Of a stretch of DNA of 64,000 nt, positions 5,531 to 25,810 are shown one piece after another. The stretch is taken from positions 1 through 64,000 of the IMG/VR virus record IMGVR_UViG_3300045972_000132; one strand, given 5' to 3'. The notes under the pieces are model-generated. The model was not told the origin of the DNA. It was given only the letters and a program-made list of their open reading frames with translations, and did no database searches. Numbering within the stretch: the stretch's first letter is position 1; the number at the start of each line of letters is the position of its first letter. A program made the position numbers and the translations under genes. The stretch is from a virus.

Positions 5531-6882
5531 TTAGTTCCCTTGTAGTTTAGTTTTATGTAGCCCAACAGGGCCTCCTTCTCGTTCGGTACTTCACCGTCCA
5601 CTACGGCTGCGGTAGCCATGGTCTTAATGGCTCCAATTTCTTTTCCAGTAACTCCGAATTCCGCAGAAATAGTGTGGCCGTCCAGCGCCAGCTTAGAAGT
5701 ATTGAATCCAGAAACTTCCTTGAAGGATGCCAGTTTGGCACGGATTCCGTCCATTACCTCCCTAGCATGTTCCCCGTCCTTGTGAGCATAATAATCTGCT
5801 TCCCGAAGATCGACTGCTTCTCCGGTATACTCACCCAACCGAGCACTAAATCTACGCAGAGCCTTAGTACCAAAATCTTCACCGGGGCACAGATGCTCCG
5901 TTACCATGGTGGAAATTTTCTTGACGGTTTCCTCTGCGGCCTTCAGGCCGCGCAAAATTTCTGCGGCCATCTTCCCACCAACCTCGTCATGCTTGTAATA
6001 ATGGTGAACCCCATCATCCCCGACGCTCATCGTCGCAGGCTTTGCAATATCGTGCAGCAACGCAGCTAGCCTGACATCGACCGAGAAGCCTCTCTCAACC
6101 GCGTAAGATACCGCCAGAAATACATGCTCATCCAGCGTCAGGTAGTGATGGGGATTAACTTGGTCATAGCGGACGCTCTTGGCAAATTCAGGGATGATTT
6201 CCTGAATCTTCCCAGAAACCACCATCATCCTCAGAGCGTACAGGATATCAGCCGACTCCTTAGCTGACAGCATCTTAATCAGTTCCGCATATACCCGTTC
6301 ACGGGCTACAGACTCCAAGCTGACGCCGAACATGGCTACCACAGCCAGAGGGTCAATCCACATCCGCTTAGTTGCGGCGAATCTAAACGCCCTCAGAATT
6401 CGCAGAGGATCCTCTTCAAACCGGTCCTTGGCAACCCCTACAGTTCTCAGGCAGGAGTCCGCAATATCACTACGACCATTAAATGGATCGATGTACTTGC
6501 CTGTCAGCAGTTCACATGCAATCGCGTTGCATGTAAAGTCACGACGGGCCAAGTCTTCTTCGATTTTAATGGACGGGTCCGTTAGGATTTCAAAATCTTT
6601 ATGACCAACCCCTGTGGATCTTTCGAATCTGGGCAAAGCAACGTCAACAATATCACCCTCAAACTCAGCTTTAATTATTCCAAATGACTGCCCCACGAGG
6701 TCGAACTTCCCCGGCAGAATCCTCATTACTTCCTTCATGGGGACACCACAAACTACGATGTCGAGATCGTCGGATTTAATTCCTAGAATACGGTCACGGA
6801 CAGAACCGCCTACTTCATAGACGGTCCCACCCATTTCCGCGATTTCAATTGCAAACTTTAGTACGGCCTTGTTTTTGGTCAC
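5527..6882 (-). CDS. cca: CCA tRNA nucleotidyltransferase (class II) with HD domain
   Basis: VGGSVRD, DLD, EDLARRDFTCNAIA, EDPLRILRAFRF, ERVYAEL, LLHDIAKP. Confidence 0.92.
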   Translation of the reverse strand: MTKNKAVLKFAIEIAEMGGTVYEVGGSVRDRILGIKSDDLDIVVCGVPMKEVMRILPGKFDLVGQSFGIIKAEFEGDIVDVALPRFERSTGVGHKDFEILTDPSIKIEEDLARRDFTCNAIACELLTGKYIDPFNGRSDIADSCLRTVGVAKDRFEEDPLRILRAFRFAATKRMWIDPLAVVAMFGVSLESVARERVYAELIKMLSAKESADILYALRMMVVSGKIQEIIPEFAKSVRYDQVNPHHYLTLDEHVFLAVSYAVERGFSVDVRLAALLHDIAKPATMSVGDDGVHHYYKHDEVGGKMAAEILRGLKAAEETVKKISTMVTEHLCPGEDFGTKALRRFSARLGEYTGEAVDLREADYYAHKDGEHAREVMDGIRAKLASFKEVSGFNTSKLALDGHTISAEFGVTGKEIGAIKTMATAAVVDGEVPNEKEALLGYIKLNYKGTK

Positions 6883-17426: not shown

Positions 17427-19232
17427 GTGGGATTTATAAATAGTGTTGCCGGTCCTCTGCGTAAAGTTTTTGCCACAGATCGCAACAAACAGAACGCCGA
17501 AATCGCCAAGGGCGCTATTTACGAGCCTAACCATCCAGGTGGGCTTATGGCCGCCTTTGATGGTAACGTTTATTCTGACTATCTAAGAGTAGACACAGAT
17601 CTTCTAGCTAAATACATGGACTATCAAGGCATGGACGACTATGCCGAGCTATCCAGTGCTCTGGATGTGTATGCGGACGATGCCACTCAAATTGACCAGG
17701 AACAGAAGAAAATCCTATGGGTCTCTTCTAAGGATGACAACGCCAAGATCGTTCTAAACGACCTCTATCATAAGACTCTACGAGTAGATGAAGAAGCTTG
17801 GGAAGTTGCTAGAAACTGCTGCAAATATGGGAATGATTTTGAGGAGATCCTAGTAGCGGAGAATGGTGTTGTTGGACTCAACTTCCTACCTACGCAAACC
17901 GTTAGAAGAATAGAAGGCCCCCACGGGGATGTAATTGGCTTCCTACAGGACTTCACTGGAAAGACCGGGTATTCACCTGAGGAATTCAAGAAGCTCCTAT
18001 CAGAGAGAATGCGTAAAAATCGGGGTGAACAAGCCACGATGGACCAATCCCTCGTGGCCTTAGAAGATTGGGAAGTTGCCCACTTTAGATTAAGGGGCAA
18101 GAACCGTTCCTCACCCTATGGTACCAGCGTTCTAGACAGTGCTCGTTTTATCTGGAAGCGCCTTATGCTTCTTGAAGATGCAGCGATGGTATTCAGAATC
18201 CAACGCGCTCCTGAAAGATACGCTTTCTATGTCGATGTTGGTGATATGCCTCCCAAGGAAGCCATCGCCCACTTGAATCAAGTTCGCGCAATGCATAAGA
18301 AACGCAAGATGATCGACCCTAGCACCGGAAAGTTAAATCTTCGCTGGGAAGCTATTTCCCCTGAAGAAGACATCTATATTCCAGTTAGAAAAGGAATTCA
18401 AGGTGCCCGTGTAGAAGTCCTACAAAGCCCAGCTTGGCAACAAACTGACGATCTTGAGTACTTCCTAGACAAGATGTTCGCGGCTGTAAAGGTTCCTAAG
18501 GCATACCTAGGTAAAGAAGGCGGCGTAGCCAAAGCCGTTCTATCAAGTGAAGACGTAAGATTTGCTAGAACCATCCTACGGGTCCAAAACGCCCTTAAGT
18601 CAGGATACAAGCAAGTCGGCAGGGTCCACTTGGCTGCGCTAGGTATCGACCCTAACGAAACCGACTTTGATCTAAACATGACGGTACCCTCCGCAATCTT
18701 TGAACTAGCTCAACTTGAGGTCAAGAATGCAAGGGCTGATTATTCTGCTAGAATGAAAGCAGATGTATCTCAATATTGGATTCTCTCCAAGATTCACGGC
18801 ATGACTGACACGGAGATTGAAAACATCTTCATTCAGAAGAAAGAAGATTTTGATCGTGACTCGGCTATGCAGATGGAACAAATGCAGGCCCAGCAACAAG
18901 CTGCTACGGCAGGAATGCCTCCACAACCCGGTGCTCCCGGTGCTCCTGGGGCACCACAAGCCGCTCCTGCCGCTCCTCCTGGCATAATTAGTGGCCCGCA
19001 GGCTCTCGCAATGGCTAATCAATTAGCCCCAGCCCAAGAATGGCGTCAGAAGAAGTCCCTTAGACTTGGCCGTGGAATTACAGAACAAGAATTATTCAAA
19101 GGTAACAGAGAGCATGAAAAACGGGCCGAAGAATCCTTTGCCAAACTTTTGAAGTCAGATCTACAGATGCAACATCGGCTCACTGAAATGCAGAGCCTCC
19201 TTCATGAATTAAGAACCGCCTCTAGGAGATAA
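17427..19232 (+). CDS. portal protein (T4 gp20-like)
   Basis: PYGTSVL, LLEDAAMVFRIQRAPERYAFYVDVG, EDIYIP, VKVPKAYL. Confidence 0.93.
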   Translation: MGFINSVAGPLRKVFATDRNKQNAEIAKGAIYEPNHPGGLMAAFDGNVYSDYLRVDTDLLAKYMDYQGMDDYAELSSALDVYADDATQIDQEQKKILWVSSKDDNAKIVLNDLYHKTLRVDEEAWEVARNCCKYGNDFEEILVAENGVVGLNFLPTQTVRRIEGPHGDVIGFLQDFTGKTGYSPEEFKKLLSERMRKNRGEQATMDQSLVALEDWEVAHFRLRGKNRSSPYGTSVLDSARFIWKRLMLLEDAAMVFRIQRAPERYAFYVDVGDMPPKEAIAHLNQVRAMHKKRKMIDPSTGKLNLRWEAISPEEDIYIPVRKGIQGARVEVLQSPAWQQTDDLEYFLDKMFAAVKVPKAYLGKEGGVAKAVLSSEDVRFARTILRVQNALKSGYKQVGRVHLAALGIDPNETDFDLNMTVPSAIFELAQLEVKNARADYSARMKADVSQYWILSKIHGMTDTEIENIFIQKKEDFDRDSAMQMEQMQAQQQAATAGMPPQPGAPGAPGAPQAAPAAPPGIISGPQALAMANQLAPAQEWRQKKSLRLGRGITEQELFKGNREHEKRAEESFAKLLKSDLQMQHRLTEMQSLLHELRTASRR

Positions 19233-19236
19233 CAAA

Positions 19237-20127
19237 ATGGATTCAAAACTAATAGCCACCAACTCAATCTCCACTCTAGTGGAAGGTTCGTTCGAAGCGT
19301 TCTCCGAAGTAATTCGCCAGACGCTTATTCAGGAATCCCAGAGACTATTCGGAAACGAAACCGACAAGCTCAAGATTATTGGAACATTTAAAAACCATGT
19401 AATCGTTGTGAACGAGAACGCCAAGTTCGCAAAGGTAATGTTCGAAACTACGGATGATGGGCAAATCATCATAACCGGTCTGGAAGATCTAAAGATTCCA
19501 GTATATGAGGATCGTGAGGTTCTATTAAAAGAACAGGCCCTAGTTGCAGTAGACAGTATCCTAGCTGGAAATATTAGCGAGGGTAGAAGCATTATCAAGG
19601 ATCTAGTACGTCTTTCTCCCGGCGATACCTCATTTGCCAATACCTTAAAGGTTCAAACCAGTATGGGAGGGTTAGACTCCATCAGTGAATCCTTAGATCG
19701 ATCAGTTGAATTAGGGGCTGATGAGTACATGGACACGTATCAGGCCAAATACCAAGATTTACAGATGTCATCCGAGACTTTCGACATTAACTCCATGAAA
19801 CCAGTAATAGAATCCAATCTACTAACGGTAATTGAAAAATTGGACCTTTTAAAGAACAAAACCGATGACTTAGTTGCAAAGTTGGAAAAAGTGTCCGAAA
19901 ATAGCGCAGATTCCTCCAAAAAGGAATTTCTGGAGTTTATGAAAACCTTCGCATCAGACTTAGTTGAATCCAAGACCGCTGTAGTTTACTCAATGAGTAA
20001 TGTCGTTGATGTTAAGGCTCTTGGTCAACTGTACGATTTAGCGTCGGAACGTTTTAAAAAGCAAGAGCACATCTTTAACCAACTATCTGACGCTTCCGAG
20101 GTTTCGGATTCAGCGTTAACCCAATAG
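19237..20127 (+). CDS. putative prohead core protein
   Basis: Position between portal and protease; acidic with several L/I-x-E motifs. Confidence 0.55.
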   Translation: MDSKLIATNSISTLVEGSFEAFSEVIRQTLIQESQRLFGNETDKLKIIGTFKNHVIVVNENAKFAKVMFETTDDGQIIITGLEDLKIPVYEDREVLLKEQALVAVDSILAGNISEGRSIIKDLVRLSPGDTSFANTLKVQTSMGGLDSISESLDRSVELGADEYMDTYQAKYQDLQMSSETFDINSMKPVIESNLLTVIEKLDLLKNKTDDLVAKLEKVSENSADSSKKEFLEFMKTFASDLVESKTAVVYSMSNVVDVKALGQLYDLASERFKKQEHIFNQLSDASEVSDSALTQ

Positions 20128-20137
20128 GAGCTACACA

Positions 20138-21106
20138 ATGGCCCGTAAACCTGTATTTATCACTTCACTGAAGGACGACCTTATCAAGATGGGTCTAATG
20201 GAAGCCGACGCATCCCCTATGGATGTCCAACCTGCCGACGCAGAGCCAGACGAGGAAGATCCAAAAGCTCAGAAGGCATCTGAGGGAGATCCCCATGAAA
20301 ACGCCAAGAAGTCTAAGGCTGAAAAGGAAGGCGAGGAAGGCGAGGAAGGCGATGACGCCCCTAAGGAAGAGTCCAAGAACAGCTTCCGCAAGAAGCTCGG
20401 CAAGAAAGGTTCTGAGAAGCCCATGCACGTTAAGTTCGGCAGGAAGCACGAATCTACTGAGACCGCCGCTGAAAGAATCAATACGATTCTAGAATCAGCC
20501 GATGCGGAGCTAGCCCAGCAGGAACTAACGGTTGCCGACGCAATTCGTGGTTTCGCTCAAATCTCCCTCGTTGCCGATAAGCTCTCTGAGCGTCTAGCCG
20601 AAGTAGCCCTAGAGCTACAGAATGAGAGTCTAGCTGACTTCTCCGCAGCTTATGACCAGCTTGCCGAAGAGGCTGCTGACTCTGCTGAATCTCTAATGAC
20701 CCTCTCAGAAAGCTCTGAGGATCTAGACGAGACCCTGATCGAGTCCGACTTTGCTCAGATGACCGAAGCCCTTGTTGAAGGTCTAGAAGTTTATGCAGAC
20801 CTCGTTGAAGAAGACGAGTCTGATGAAGAGACCAAGGATGACAAGAAGGACGACGAGGAAACTGGCGAAGAAGTAGAAGGTGACAAAGAAGAACCTAAGG
20901 AAGAGTCCGACGCCCGTTCCGAGTGGCTACGCCTCCGCGAATTACGCGGCCAGGATCTAGCCGAGGAAGAAGAGGGTGAAAACAAGGTCCACATCGACAT
21001 CGACTCACACAAGAGCGACGATGAAGAGGATAAAGAAGACGACAAGGACGACGAAATGGGCGACGAAGACAAGGATGATGAAGGGGAGAAAGAAGAGGGA
21101 AAATAG
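20138..21106 (+). CDS. highly acidic prohead core/scaffold protein
   Basis: AGGAG SD; D/E-rich; T4 gp67-like position. Confidence 0.7.
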   Translation: MARKPVFITSLKDDLIKMGLMEADASPMDVQPADAEPDEEDPKAQKASEGDPHENAKKSKAEKEGEEGEEGDDAPKEESKNSFRKKLGKKGSEKPMHVKFGRKHESTETAAERINTILESADAELAQQELTVADAIRGFAQISLVADKLSERLAEVALELQNESLADFSAAYDQLAEEAADSAESLMTLSESSEDLDETLIESDFAQMTEALVEGLEVYADLVEEDESDEETKDDKKDDEETGEEVEGDKEEPKEESDARSEWLRLRELRGQDLAEEEEGENKVHIDIDSHKSDDEEDKEDDKDDEMGDEDKDDEGEKEEGK

Positions 21107-21321
21107 TCCCCCGGAATCACCTCTCGCTTCTAGTAGATCCGGCTACTGGCAAACATTTTACACAAAGAACACGTAGAGGTTCTTACAGCAGTGGAAGAAA
21201 GGAAACAGTCGGAGCGGATCGCGCTTTTCTCCGACCGTTTTCTAACCCTTCCAGAAAAGTTAAGAAAGCGTTATCCTCACTAGGTAGAACACCTAACAAA
21301 TTTAAGAAATGGCGGATATAA
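21097..21321 (+). CDS. -1 frameshift extension of the acidic core protein (72 aa, basic)
   Basis: G GGA AAA immediately before TAG; -1 frame open 21103-21318, TAA ends 2 nt before the protease ATG 21324. Confidence 0.7.
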   Translation, partial: GKIVPRNHLSLLVDPATGKHFTQRTRRGSYSSGRKETVGADRAFLRPFSNPSRKVKKALSSLGRTPNKFKKWRI

Positions 21322-21323
21322 AA

Positions 21324-23078
21324 ATGTCAAAAAAGGTAAATCTAAAACCAATCAATCTGGAAGAGAACACTCTTGCTACCCAGACCACAGCTAGAGATCT
21401 TACCGAAGTTGTTGCGGTTGGTTCCCTAGAGGTAATTACCGAAAGTTCTGTAGACGGGAAGCCTAAGAAGTTTAGGGTTCGCGGCCACTTCGGAAATTGT
21501 GATGAGGCTACTGCCAATAAGCGTGTTTACCCAAAGACACTCTGGGAACGCGAAATTACTCGTCTAACCGCCCCCATGACGGAAAAGACCCTATATGGTG
21601 AGTTAGATCATCCTCAGGACGGTCGCACGATGCTTGCCCGTGTAAGTCACGTTATTACTGGAATGAAGATCGAAAACGGCAAAGTTATTGGCGAGGCTGA
21701 AATCGTCCCCACCACTGCTGGTAAGAATCTTCAGGCCCTTTTGGAGTCTGGCTGCAAAGTCGGTATCTCTTCTAGAGGGTTCGGCAGCACTAAACCCGGC
21801 CCCAAGGGAGAAGATATCGTTCAAGAAGACTACAAGCTCGTTACCTTCGACTTCGTAGCTGATCCTGCTGCTGGTGCCTTCCCTAACGTATTCATCGAGT
21901 CCCTAGGGCACTCGGTAGGCTCCAAGCAATTAACCCTAGACCAGTTAAAAGAAGCTAACCCTACCTTGGTTGCAGAGATTGTAAAACAAGCAGTTGAGTC
22001 TAAGGAAGCTGAAATTCGCAAGACCCTAACCGAGTCAGTGGTAACGGAAGCCTCCGCTGCTGTCCAAAACGCCAAGGACGCCCTCAGAGACGAGTTCGCC
22101 CAAGAGCTATCCATTGTCATTGCTGAGTGCAAGTCTGAATTAAGGGAAGAGGTTAAGCAGGAACTAATGTCGGATCCGGAGATTGGTGCAGCAAAGACCA
22201 CCTTGGAATCCATCAAAATGCTCCTAGCCCCCTATATTCTCCCTCAGGACGTTTCCACCGTTGTGGAGTCCAAGAAGGCTGAAATCGCAGCCCTGACTGA
22301 ATCCGCTGATGAGACTGTAACTGAATATGAAGCCAAGCTAGACGATGCGAATAGCCAGATTCAAGCAATGGCCGAAACTCTCCGCACTGTCGGTTACAAG
22401 TATTATCTAGAAACCCTAATCTCCCAGTATCCAGAAGCCGAGCTAATCCGAAAGATGGTTGGATCTGTCGATGATTACGACTCTTCTGATGAGATTAAGC
22501 TGAAGGTCGAAGCCCTAATGGCAGATCTAGATCAGAAGCAGCAAGATCAAGAGTCCAAGGCGCAAGCTAAGGCTCAGTCAAAGATTGATCAAGAAACTAA
22601 AGCAGCACTTGCTGAAGCTGCCCAAGCCAAGAAAGAACACGCAGAAGTATTCGCCAAGCTTGAAAAGGCTGCGGGTCTTCTAGAAGGCATGTCAGATAAG
22701 GTTTCCGGTCTTGAGAAGCAATTACAGGACGCTGAATCACAGGCCAAAAAGTCCCAAATCAAGTTTTATGCTGAACAGAAGTTGACAAAACACCCAAAGG
22801 CTTCCAAAATCCGTGAAGTCTTAGAAACCGTTGAATTCAATACAGTTTCTGAAGTAGATAAGTTTTTTGAAAAATTCCAAGGGCAAGTTTCAGCAGCACC
22901 CACTGAGACCTTGGAGGAAACCAGAGCAAGAGTTCGTGCAAAGGTCAGTGGTGGTAGGACGGTAACACCGTTGGACGAAGAGACAGTATCTCGGGAGAGA
23001 ACTTCACCTCTAGCCAACTTAATAGGAATCAGTCCTAGCGAGTTTAGGAATTTAGCTAAACTTGATGGGAACAAATAA
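21324..23078 (+). CDS. prohead protease (T4 gp21 family) fused to coiled-coil scaffold
   Basis: NKRVYP, GELDHP, VSH, VGISSRGFG, TFDFVADP; long helical C-terminus; alternative start 21309. Confidence 0.92.
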   Translation: MSKKVNLKPINLEENTLATQTTARDLTEVVAVGSLEVITESSVDGKPKKFRVRGHFGNCDEATANKRVYPKTLWEREITRLTAPMTEKTLYGELDHPQDGRTMLARVSHVITGMKIENGKVIGEAEIVPTTAGKNLQALLESGCKVGISSRGFGSTKPGPKGEDIVQEDYKLVTFDFVADPAAGAFPNVFIESLGHSVGSKQLTLDQLKEANPTLVAEIVKQAVESKEAEIRKTLTESVVTEASAAVQNAKDALRDEFAQELSIVIAECKSELREEVKQELMSDPEIGAAKTTLESIKMLLAPYILPQDVSTVVESKKAEIAALTESADETVTEYEAKLDDANSQIQAMAETLRTVGYKYYLETLISQYPEAELIRKMVGSVDDYDSSDEIKLKVEALMADLDQKQQDQESKAQAKAQSKIDQETKAALAEAAQAKKEHAEVFAKLEKAAGLLEGMSDKVSGLEKQLQDAESQAKKSQIKFYAEQKLTKHPKASKIREVLETVEFNTVSEVDKFFEKFQGQVSAAPTETLEETRARVRAKVSGGRTVTPLDEETVSRERTSPLANLIGISPSEFRNLAKLDGNK

Positions 23079-23111: not shown

Positions 23112-24632
23112 ATGAGCAAGCCTTCCCTTAACGGCATCGATGCCCGTAAGACTCTGATGGACGAGTCTTACCTCGGTGCAATCACCAACAAGTGGTCAGA
23201 GTACCTAGAAGGTATTCCTAGCCGCTCAGACAGCGACCGCTATCTACGCGGCTGCACTGCAATCCTCATGGAGAATCAGTCGGAGTACCTCCAGGGCCTA
23301 GACGAAGACACCCGCCAGAGCAACGTCGGTAGCTTCACTAAGTTCATTTTCCCAATTCTCCGCAGAGTATTCCCCAACTTGATCGCCAACGAAATCGTTA
23401 GCGTTCAACCTATGACTGCTCCTACCGGCGCGGTCTTCTACCTAGATTACGTCTACGGTAGCTCCAAGGGTCAAGTTGTCGGCGGAACCACTACCTTCCC
23501 AGACGGATTCGACAAGGACTACTCAGGCGAATACGTTAACGGCGAGCAGCTAGGTGGCGGCGTAGGCGACGGTGCAAAGTGGGGCGGCGCAGGCGGGGCT
23601 CTAACCGGTACCCTCGGCTGGCTCCCAGTTCGTGACCCCGCAGATGCCTCAGGTCTATTCAGCGTCACGTTCTCCGAACTAGACTCCTCAGGTAACGTTG
23701 TCCAGACTGCCGTTGCAGCTTCTGGCGGCGCAAGCTTCACCTTCACCCCCGCTGGCGGCTCTACCGCAGGTTCTATCGCGCTAACTACTGGCGTTATCAC
23801 CGGCTTCAAGTTCCAGAACGCGGTTGCTCTAAACAACACGGTTCGCGCATACTACTACTACAACGGTGAAGCTTCCTCATCCGGCGTAGCTCAAGTACAG
23901 CTAAACGTCCGTCAGTCACCAGTTCAGGCAGTTCCTCGCCGCCTCAAGGCCCTATGGTCCTCTGAAGCAGCAGAAGATCTACGCGCACTACACGGCGTAG
24001 ACGCTGAGGCTGAAATGGTTGCCATGATCGCCCAGGAAATCGCGCTAGAAATCGACCGCGAAGTCATCCAGGACCTTCTCAAGAACTCCAACGGAACCAC
24101 GGCTCAGTTCGACCGTACTCCTCCCGCCGGTATTCCTGAAATCCAGCACCTCCGTGCAATGGTTACCCAGATTGCAACGGTATCCAACCTCATCCACAAG
24201 AAGACCCTCCGCGCTCCAGCAAACTGGATCGTAACTTCCCCCGAAGTTTCGGCTCTCTTGGCTCAGTTAACCACTCACGGTGACTTCCGCCCAATGTGGT
24301 CTAGCGACACCAGCACCCCATACGGCGCAGCGGACGCTCCTCGTCCCCTACAACGTAACGGCCAGTTCGGCGTTTACAAGTGTGGAACGCTGATGAACAA
24401 GTGGACGATCTACGAGGATCCATACTTCACCCGTAACCAGATGCTAGTCGGCCTAAAGGGCGACGGCTTCCTGAACGCCGGTTATGTATGGGCACCCTAT
24501 GTTCCACTCCAGGTAACTCCTACGTTCCTAGACCCAGCGGATATGACCATGCGTAAGGGTCTCCGTACTCGTTACGCGAAGAAATTACTCCGTTCAGAAT
24601 TCTACGGAAACGTCACCATCAGCAACGTGTAG
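23112..24632 (+). CDS. major capsid protein (T4 gp23-like)
   Basis: RRVFPNLIANEIVSVQPM, RRLKALWS.EAAEDL, EIDRE, APYVPL, GLRTRY. Confidence 0.95.
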   Translation: MSKPSLNGIDARKTLMDESYLGAITNKWSEYLEGIPSRSDSDRYLRGCTAILMENQSEYLQGLDEDTRQSNVGSFTKFIFPILRRVFPNLIANEIVSVQPMTAPTGAVFYLDYVYGSSKGQVVGGTTTFPDGFDKDYSGEYVNGEQLGGGVGDGAKWGGAGGALTGTLGWLPVRDPADASGLFSVTFSELDSSGNVVQTAVAASGGASFTFTPAGGSTAGSIALTTGVITGFKFQNAVALNNTVRAYYYYNGEASSSGVAQVQLNVRQSPVQAVPRRLKALWSSEAAEDLRALHGVDAEAEMVAMIAQEIALEIDREVIQDLLKNSNGTTAQFDRTPPAGIPEIQHLRAMVTQIATVSNLIHKKTLRAPANWIVTSPEVSALLAQLTTHGDFRPMWSSDTSTPYGAADAPRPLQRNGQFGVYKCGTLMNKWTIYEDPYFTRNQMLVGLKGDGFLNAGYVWAPYVPLQVTPTFLDPADMTMRKGLRTRYAKKLLRSEFYGNVTISNV

Positions 24633-24766: not shown

Positions 24767-25810
24767 ATGACAATCAAAGGAACCAAGCACAATAAAAAAA
24801 GAATATATCTATCTGAGGAAGTAAAAAATAGCATGGTAATGCAATACAGGGACGCTATGGATAAAGGAGTAATGCTGACACAGAAAATGCTCGCGGATAA
24901 ATATGGCATAACCCAAGTAGCCTTTAGTCAGATTTTAAAAAAACACGGAGTCAAAGCCAGGAGTCTAATTGAAGCCAACCCTGCGTCTTTTGATGTAGAG
25001 GCCGCCATAAAGTACTACTTCAGCGATCCTAAGATATCCTTATCAGACGTAGGTAAAAAATTTGGAGTCTGTGGGGATGTTATACGTATGAAGTTAGTGA
25101 AGCGAGGTATTCCCACTAAGCAGATGTCTGCTTACGCAAAGTATTCTTTTAACAGAAACTTCTTTAGCACCATTACACCAGAAAGCGCCTATTGGGCTGG
25201 TTTTCTAGCAGCAGATGGCAATATAGATACACCTGGACTTGCAGTTAGGATAGGAATTCATCCCAAGGATATCGAACTATTAAATAATTTTAAACTGTGT
25301 ACAGGGGTGGAGGTCCCGATTCAATCCAAAATAAACAATGGTAACCATCCTTTTGTATCTTTAGTAGTCAGCAGTAAGGATTGGGTGATAGACCTAGAGA
25401 AGAACTTTAATGTCGTCCCAAACAAATCACTGATTCTAAAACCCCCAAATATTACAGATCTAGATCTCAAATGGCACTTTATACGTGGTGTGTTTGACGG
25501 AGACGGTTCAGTAGGTAAATCAGGAACCATGATAAATTTCATATCCGCATCCCCCGCATTCTTCAATTGGATTCTTGAAAATTGCGGAAAGGAACCGGGC
25601 CACATTCAAATTTGTATGAAACAGAAAAAGACAAGTTTCGATTTTTATGAGGCTGCACAGTCTGCATTTTACTCTGGCGACTCCGCAAGAGAAATTTCAT
25701 CTAAGATGTACAAGAACTCCACCCCCACTACTCGACTAGATCGTAAATTTAGACGCTTAATTACTCACCCAGACTCCCCTCTTCGCCAGATGTTTTCAGA
25801 TGAAGTCTAG
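24767..25810 (+). mobile_element. free-standing LAGLIDADG homing endonuclease with N-terminal HTH repeats
   Basis: AYWAGFLAADG and HFIRGVFDGDG motifs; own promoter; AT-richer than flanks. Confidence 0.85.

Follow-up and report, generated by a model that had tools for sequence, protein, structure and literature searches.

We analyzed a stretch of 64,000 nucleotides (nt), hereafter the window, which forms the first 64 kb of the IMG/VR viral contig IMGVR_UViG_3300045972_000132 (99.4 kb, estimated completeness ~59%). An acidic gene in the head module of this virus very probably undergoes a programmed −1 ribosomal frameshift at its last two sense codons, which would add a basic tail to a minor fraction of the protein. 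This reading is carried by the anatomy of the signal, its conservation across a wide clade of relatives, and the purifying selection that acts on a −1 frame without a start codon. A start-less frame under selection, combined with a slippery site locked to the codon phase, is the signature of programmed −1 frameshifting. The elements concerned are located in the window as follows.

20138..21106, + strand: 0-frame acidic gene encoding 322 amino acids, isoelectric point (pI) 4.2, with 107 Asp/Glu (from the open reading frame (ORF) listing and the charge)
21081..21088, + strand: internal Shine-Dalgarno (SD)-like sequence AAGGGGAG, 8 nt 5′ of the heptamer
21097..21103, + strand: slippery heptamer G GGA AAA (X XXY YYZ), in phase with the acidic gene
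21104..21106, + strand: 0-frame TAG stop ("shifty stop"), 0 nt after the heptamer
21103..21321, + strand: −1 frame extension (the tail), 72 codons plus TAA 21319-21321, pI 12.0, with 18 Lys/Arg and 3 Asp/Glu
21157..21318, + strand: conserved basic core of the tail, which in the window reads FTQRTRRGSYSSGRKETVG...RKVKK...GRTPNKFKKWRI
21324..23078, + strand: fused gene for a prohead protease (S77, gp21-like) and scaffold (PF03420, 3.5e-14; PHROG 207)

As listed, the acidic ORF ends with GAG GGA AAA TAG, and the heptamer directly abuts the stop. The −1 frame is open from 21082 up to the TAA at 21319-21321, and neither ATG, GTG, nor TTG occurs in it between 21082 and 21321. From the slip site it reads IVPRNHLS...KKWRI, and its TAA ends 2 nt 5′ of the protease ATG at 21324. 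A prediction made earlier from the letters of the window (hereafter, the original prediction) had pointed to the heptamer at the stop, to the SD-like sequence 8 nt upstream of it, and to the ATG-less, strongly basic frame of 72 codons that runs almost to the protease start, and all of these were confirmed in the sequence. When the gap sequence was shuffled, one given frame remained open for 71 codons in 1.6% of the shuffles, and the bodies of homologous genes carry an in-phase X XXY YYZ heptamer at 0.14% of their codons; chance alone is an unlikely explanation. A contig from a second pond-metagenome study was identical over 21057-21504, indicating that an assembly indel in the A run is unlikely; this comparison was made on contigs, not on reads, so that minor A-run variants below the contig level are invisible to it. 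Readthrough of the TAG was considered as well and rejected, because another 0-frame TAG follows eight codons on.

In the mechanism that we propose, most ribosomes would read GGA AAA and terminate at TAG 21104, thereby producing the 322-residue acidic protein as the major form. A minority would slip by −1 on G GGA AAA, with tRNA-Gly re-pairing with GGG and tRNA-Lys with AAA. The shifted ribosomes would then read ATA GTC CCC and onward, adding 72 residues of basic sequence, and would end at TAA 21319, 2 nt before the protease-scaffold ATG. The product would be a minor acidic-plus-basic form of 394 residues with the junction ...EEGK-IVPR.... Slippage would likely be stimulated by AAGGGGAG, the internal SD-like sequence 8 nt 5′ of the heptamer, and by the stop codon immediately 3′ of that heptamer, and 3′ RNA structure would contribute little, if anything, in the window phage. 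We infer both the slippage itself and its ratio.

The relatives of the window were collected through the neighboring protease. The protease was aligned with its database homologues, and alignment-based scans gave 80 loci each among viral and metagenome contigs; a scan of the viral contigs with a single-protein query gave no match. A profile search located a basic peptide directly 5′ of the fused protease-scaffold gene in 124 of these 160 loci, which correspond to 85 distinct junctions and to 67 clusters at 85% tail identity. Relative to the long, mostly acidic ORF upstream, the peptide lies in the −1 frame in 61 of the 67 clusters and in the +1 frame in two, and four clusters were unscorable at contig ends; the automatic frame classifier left out same-frame cases, of which the L003/L007 lineage was examined by hand, and the cluster tallies are approximate by one or two. 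No ATG, GTG, or TTG was present between the frame opening and the conserved core in 45 of the 61 clusters. In a tblastn search, the acidic protein of the window matched 14 clusters, in all 14 inside the ORF upstream of the basic peptide; residues ~83-222 of the protein share homology with this ORF, whose end in relatives is the junction.

The family consensus is ..EAWRxRRTAYxSGRxE.IGxE...RKxKK...TPFxxxFRWxx, with a length of ~57 residues and a median of 18 Lys/Arg versus 5 Asp/Glu. Alignments showed that R8, R9, Y12, S14, G15, R16, G21, R35, and W54 of the core are nearly invariant. The tail of the window matched the clade profile with an E-value of 2e-15, and it is among the more divergent members, without the EAW motif and with a longer linker. 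In the nearest relative, L002, whose protease is 44% identical, a 291-residue acidic ORF ends with TCA AAA AAA TAA, so that an A AAA AAA heptamer abuts the TAA, and the −1 frame ends 16 nt 5′ of the protease gene. The motifs VDPATG and LGRTPxK are common to this −1 frame and the tail of the window. Among 1.84 billion representative predicted proteins, only one match to the tail was found (P0121, 55% identical), as would be expected if gene callers find no start for the module.

We then compared 50 pairs of relatives in the tail frame. The differences at the first, second, and third codon positions numbered 385, 195, and 983, that is, they fell mostly on the third position. Single-base changes were synonymous in 694 cases versus non-synonymous in 193 in the tail frame, and the same changes gave 112 versus 733 and 49 versus 787 in the other two frames. 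These results showed, at the level of the aligned sequences, that the start-less −1 frame is under purifying selection.

The slippery site was likewise retained. Of the 61 clusters, 42 have an X XXY YYZ heptamer in phase no more than 60 nt from the stop, and the distance from heptamer to stop is 0-9 nt in 29 of the 61. As the nearest heptamer, 14 clusters have GGGAAAC, nine GGGAAAA, five CCCTTTC, and three AAAAAAA; 23 of the 42 thus carry GGGAAAC or GGGAAAA at the position of the window's heptamer. In-phase heptamers were found at 57 of 1115 codons of the overlap compared to 27 of 18932 codons in gene bodies (odds ratio 38, p 1e-51). Out-of-phase heptamers in the same overlap were found at 9 of 2230 positions, giving an in-phase versus out-of-phase odds ratio of 13 (p 3e-19). 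The original prediction had described a dnaX/IS-type signal and proposed that relatives be examined for a conserved heptamer and for selection on the −1 frame; the slippery heptamer is kept across the clade, and the outcome of both comparisons was strongly positive. Its central claim, that one gene makes an acidic and an acidic-plus-basic core protein, is accordingly supported by clade conservation and selection, as far as sequences can speak for it.

The SD-like element was evaluated in silico by pairing with the canonical anti-SD sequence, which is assumed here and from which the host's own may differ. In the window, the duplex reaches −8.3 kcal/mol at offset 7. Across the clade, pairing peaks 6-10 nt 5′ of the heptamers, with means of −4.1 to −4.6 compared to a background of about −2 kcal/mol, and strong anti-SD sites occupy 24% of positions at offsets 4-12 versus 4% at offsets 20-59. 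The upstream SD element of the original prediction was thus borne out by a positional enrichment throughout the clade. The 0-frame stop follows 0-6 nt after the heptamer in most lineages and 0 nt after it in the window. Slippage is known to be stimulated by a stop codon that immediately follows the slippery run, and the abutting stop, which the original prediction had stressed little, is likely a further stimulator here.

We also analyzed RNA structure 3′ of the slip site. Complementary segments are present in the window, namely, CCGGA 21111-15 with TCCGG 21138-42, ACCTCT 21119-24 with AGAGGT 21175-80, and CTAGTAG 21130-36 with CTACTGG 21143-49. The candidate is given below.

21130..21149, + strand: candidate hairpin CUAGUAG-AUCCGG-CUACUGG, with alternative stems 21111-15/21138-42 and 21119-24/21175-80

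Compared to dinucleotide shuffles, the window fold gave z −0.08 for 21104-21185 and z +0.23 for 21104-21155, and the 60 nt 3′ of the heptamer gave z −0.2 in the window and z +1.7 in L002. A 3′ structure is not supported as a stimulator in the window. Of the structure proposed in the original prediction, therefore, the complementary segments do exist, as alternative stems, but the fold is not above chance. An H-type pseudoknot from CCGGA/TCCGG and CTAGTAG/CTACTGG was rejected, because zero nt remain between the 3′ strands and the stems exclude each other. For the clade, the 60 nt after the heptamers were more structured than shuffles (mean z −1.7, p 9e-5), z was below −1.64 at 53% of the sites, and several relatives have strong hairpins. 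A 3′ stem-loop or pseudoknot is not obligatory for bacterial frameshift sites. Separately, a 14-nt block, GTAGATCCGGCTAC, is identical between the window (21133-21146) and L002 (~5731-5744), including four wobble positions. This block corresponds to a small GUAG/CUAC hairpin and codes for VDPAT in the −1 frame, and the neighboring proteins are ~45% identical. As a structural hint from two sequences only, it is suggestive at most.

Several observations weigh against a programmed frameshift. The SD-like element sits in a purine-rich coding region, where such motifs are common, and the downstream region of the window and of L002 is no more structured than shuffles, so that one classical stimulator is missing. 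A canonical heptamer is missing from the overlap in ~19 of the 61 clusters. By eye, an in-phase C CCT near the stop is kept in L010, L012, L086, L125, L054, L071, L088, and L035, which have no canonical heptamer; it may represent a decayed CCCTTTC site or P-site-only slippage of tRNA-Pro. The basic ORF has its own ATG in ~6 of the 61 clusters, and in L044, L054, and a few others an ATG lies just 5′ of the core. In L007 (4793-5983; also in L003, L009, and L076), the basic ORF follows the TAG of the acidic gene in the same frame, and this L003/L007 lineage has a GTG directly after the stop and an ATG seven codons later. The basic ORF there is a candidate for a stand-alone gene or for readthrough, not for a −1 frameshift, and its own starts indicate that the basic module can be made as a separate protein. 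The search for longer tail-bearing proteins gave no natural in-frame fusion of the acidic protein with the tail, which counts weakly in the same direction. The original prediction had named a start of the basic ORF's own in relatives as evidence against it; such starts were found in a minority, and the 45 clusters noted above, like the window, are without a conventional start.

Two further groups of relatives differ in arrangement. In L039 and L097, the basic ORF is shifted by +1 relative to the long ORF upstream. In L117, L118, L126, L132, and L139, which are more distant and have the fused protease, the upstream ORF of 340-450 residues has a basic C-terminus in frame; the tail there is a different one (..LLGYLxxVKxGKVAPGQ.., Lys-rich), and no recoding is involved. 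In the clusters with C CCT, the in-phase motif (e.g., CGC CCT ACC) gives a conserved Pro (PPY or PF) in the −1 frame.

The exceptions lead to the possibility that the basic ORF is translated alone, from a non-canonical start (e.g., ATA 21103, 5 nt after GAGGG) or by termination-reinitiation, giving a free protein of 50-72 residues. ATA is indeed the first −1 codon after the heptamer in both the window and L002, and the own ATG or GTG in a minority of relatives suggests that the free peptide has a function in some members of the clade. In bacteria, ATA is a very poor initiation codon. Moreover, the frame of the window and the sequence 5′ of the core in most clusters are devoid of ATG, GTG, and TTG, and no near-cognate codon is kept at a fixed place. 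Independent initiation also fails to predict that heptamers are specific to one phase (57 in phase versus 9 out of phase) or that the −1 relation is nearly exclusive (61 clusters versus 2); we thus regard it as unlikely. A different doubt concerns the window phage itself, where the −1 ORF might be a decaying remnant or a spacer and only the short acidic protein would be made. The divergence of the tail and the unsupported 3′ structure would fit such a decay. Nevertheless, the 72 codons are intact, to an extent matched by few shuffles, the profile match and the nearly invariant R, R, Y, S, G, R, G, R, and W are retained, none of the heptamer, the adjacent stop, or the SD-like site is missing, and the frame stops just short of the next gene. 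Decay is therefore very improbable.

The break in frame could also be an artifact of assembly or sequencing, such that a true run of five A's would encode the fusion directly; the break does fall in a short homopolymer of a metagenome assembly with a depth of ~13. This explanation is scarcely credible given the identical contig of the second study, the recurrence of the break with a heptamer before the stop in dozens of independent assemblies, which mostly have GGGAAAC and no long homopolymer, and the failure to find an in-frame fused homologue. Slippage of RNA polymerase rather than of the ribosome would account for the runs of seven A's or T's at the site in L002 and a few relatives. Efficient polymerase slippage needs runs of ~9, as in IS elements and Thermus dnaX. 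The window has four A's, the commonest site in the clade is GGGAAAC, and the strict codon phase of the heptamers is a ribosomal signature; transcriptional slippage is, likewise, barely conceivable here. Programmed −1 ribosomal frameshifting thus remains by far the most probable reading.

The arrangement resembles several known systems. The slip site of phage lambda G/GT is G GGA AAG, and there, as proposed for the window, a −1 slip on G GGA AAN occurs a few codons from the end of a morphogenesis gene, giving a short and a C-terminally extended form at a fixed ratio, and is kept across diverged phages despite little sequence conservation. However, the lambda genes belong to the tail module, upstream of the tape measure gene, whereas the site described here belongs to the head module, from the portal to the prohead protease, and the proteins are unrelated. 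The placement of G/GT between the tail tube and tape measure genes is not found here, where the site lies between the portal and the protease-scaffold and capsid genes. The extension also differs, being a short, highly basic peptide on a polyacidic protein. Tail assembly chaperone frameshifts in tailed phages, including lambda G/GT, are cited as background in PMC10885494. Regarding signal type, the site shares SD plus heptamer with dnaX and the IS3 family, and the clade has the same upstream anti-SD peak and, in many relatives, a 3′ stem-loop. In Escherichia coli dnaX (tau/gamma) and IS3-family signals, the internal SD lies ~10 nt upstream of the X XXY YYZ heptamer. The dnaX shift truncates the product, whereas the shift here would extend it, and dnaX needs a strong 3′ hairpin that is unsupported in the window; the adjacent 0-frame stop may substitute for it.

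Head genes are also subject to frameshifting, as in gene 10A/10B of T7/T3. A frameshift in the major head protein of Lactobacillus phage A2 (gp5A/5B) is listed as reference 41 in PMC10885494. In these phages, as proposed here, a −1 shift near the 3′ end of a head-module gene gives a minor extended variant; in T7/T3 and A2, the variant co-assembles with the major form, and the gene encodes the major capsid protein. The gene studied here differs in that it does not encode a capsid protein; its product is acidic and core- or scaffold-like, and it precedes the protease gene in a head module of the T4 type. Tail chaperones, capsids, and further genes appear in the list of the PRFect paper, which does not include a T4-like prohead core gene. 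Full-text literature searches gave no description of a frameshift in T4-like prohead core genes, in agreement with the original prediction, in which such recoding was not known for these genes. The mechanism is textbook and the gene context is new, apparently undescribed.

The 322-residue protein is a putative prohead core or scaffold-like protein, given its place between portal and protease. Neither it nor the tail gave a match in Pfam or PHROGs, and the same was true of the 296-residue neighboring ORF. The acidic protein gave only sub-threshold hits and a low-confidence model in the ESM Atlas, and the tail profile gave no match to PDB sequences. An AlphaFold2 (AF2) model of the tail, built from 65 sequences, had a predicted local distance difference test (pLDDT) score of 70 and a predicted template modeling (pTM) score of 0.30; it is mostly extended with three short helices, and as a model it fits a peptide that needs a partner.

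We next compared the pair with gp67 and gp68 of T4-type phages. In Shigella phage JK32, gp67 (pI 4.2) and gp68 (pI 10.3) are both located between portal and protease. T4 gp67, which is acidic, and gp68, which has a basic C-terminal half, have the same place between gp20 and gp21 and the same charge order as the pair here; they are, however, two genes, each with its own start, whereas the parts here would be linked through the −1 frame. By analogy, this suggests that the acidic-plus-basic pair is equivalent to gp67/gp68 in the assembly core. We rejected a homologous relationship between the tail and T4-type gp67 or gp68, because profile comparisons showed none: hhalign of the tail against gp67, gp68, and a 20-member gp68 alignment gave a probability of ~0.1%, and neither the acidic protein nor the tail belongs to the Pfam families GP67 (PF17634) or gp68 (PF26830). 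A faint R-x-R-x-A-[FY]-x-[ST]-G resemblance was noticed by eye and has no statistical support. The gp67/gp68 parallel drawn in the original prediction thus stands for position and charge, but not for sequence.

An [LIVMF]-x-E motif occurs just 5′ of the basic core in 16 of 28 scorable relatives, and the window, L002, and P0121 are without it. The motif is similar to the one at which T4 gp21 cleaves. The prohead protease may free the basic module behind an (L/V)-x-E motif in many relatives, but no such site is visible in the window. Both forms would presumably enter the prohead core, and the basic module would act within the head, with DNA, the capsid, or the portal as a conceivable partner. 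Termination beside the protease start could couple some protease translation to the shifted ribosomes. As a tentative extension, which we offer as one possibility and not as the expected outcome, the frameshift might load a fixed, sub-stoichiometric amount of a polybasic peptide into the prohead, with the polyacidic part as a carrier or charge-masking chaperone. The protease might free the peptide behind (L/V)-x-E in most lineages, after which it might remain inside the mature head as an internal peptide that condenses DNA or is involved in ejection, a counterpart of the T4 internal proteins and gp68, and protease synthesis would be tied to the frameshift rate.

Among tailed phages, tail chaperones and a few capsid genes are the familiar cases of programmed frameshifting. 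The T4-type assembly core is a classic model of size-determining scaffolds, in which the roles of gp67 and gp68 are poorly understood. In this uncultured clade, recoding would connect an acidic protein with a basic module, which implies that head assembly is sensitive to the ratio of the two forms. Since gene callers overlook nearly all copies of the basic module, annotated head modules of the clade show a false 200-bp "intergenic gap". Furthermore, the 60-odd diverged natural sites form a comparative set for the stimulator needs of bacterial −1 sites, since they vary in the heptamer (GGGAAAC, GGGAAAA, CCCTTTC, or AAAAAAA), in the presence of a 3′ hairpin, and in the distance of the stop (0-6 nt).

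The remaining genes of the head module are as follows.

17427..19232, + strand: T4-type portal gene (Pfam PF07230, 2.6e-62)
19237-20127: 296-residue ORF between the portal gene and the acidic gene
23112..24632, + strand: gp23-type major capsid protein gene (Pfam PF07068, 8.5e-72)

The public sequencing runs listed as containing the contig are pond metagenomes, with no RNA run among them, and the clade as a whole comes from pond, lake, sediment, and soil metagenomes. A blastn search of cultured phages with the region gave no match, and the only ones matched by the protease in tblastn were distant T4-like and jumbo phages (at most 32% identity), so that there is no annotated relative for comparison. 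An alternative in-frame protease ATG at 21309 would overlap the last codons of the tail; comparison with the L002 sequence favors the start at 21324, without settling the choice. Read from 21309 to 23078, the protease-scaffold is a single protein of 589 residues, whose C-terminal part of ~400 residues is scaffold-like and rich in coiled coils. This fusion is common to hundreds of metagenomic homologues of 500-620 residues, in contrast to cultured T4-like phages, where gp21 and gp22 are separate genes.

Protease-scaffold homologues of ~930 residues were observed among P0107, P0102, and P0115, and in L055 the protease match is displaced by ~1.1 kb. One of the ~930-residue homologues contains an intein-splicing domain (PF14890), and from these sequences the protease genes appear to be interrupted by inteins in part of the clade. 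Directly 3′ of the major capsid gene of the window, a 347-residue ORF (24767-25810) carries a LAGLIDADG-like domain (PF14528, 3.1e-07) and probably represents the insertion of a free-standing homing endonuclease gene into the head module.

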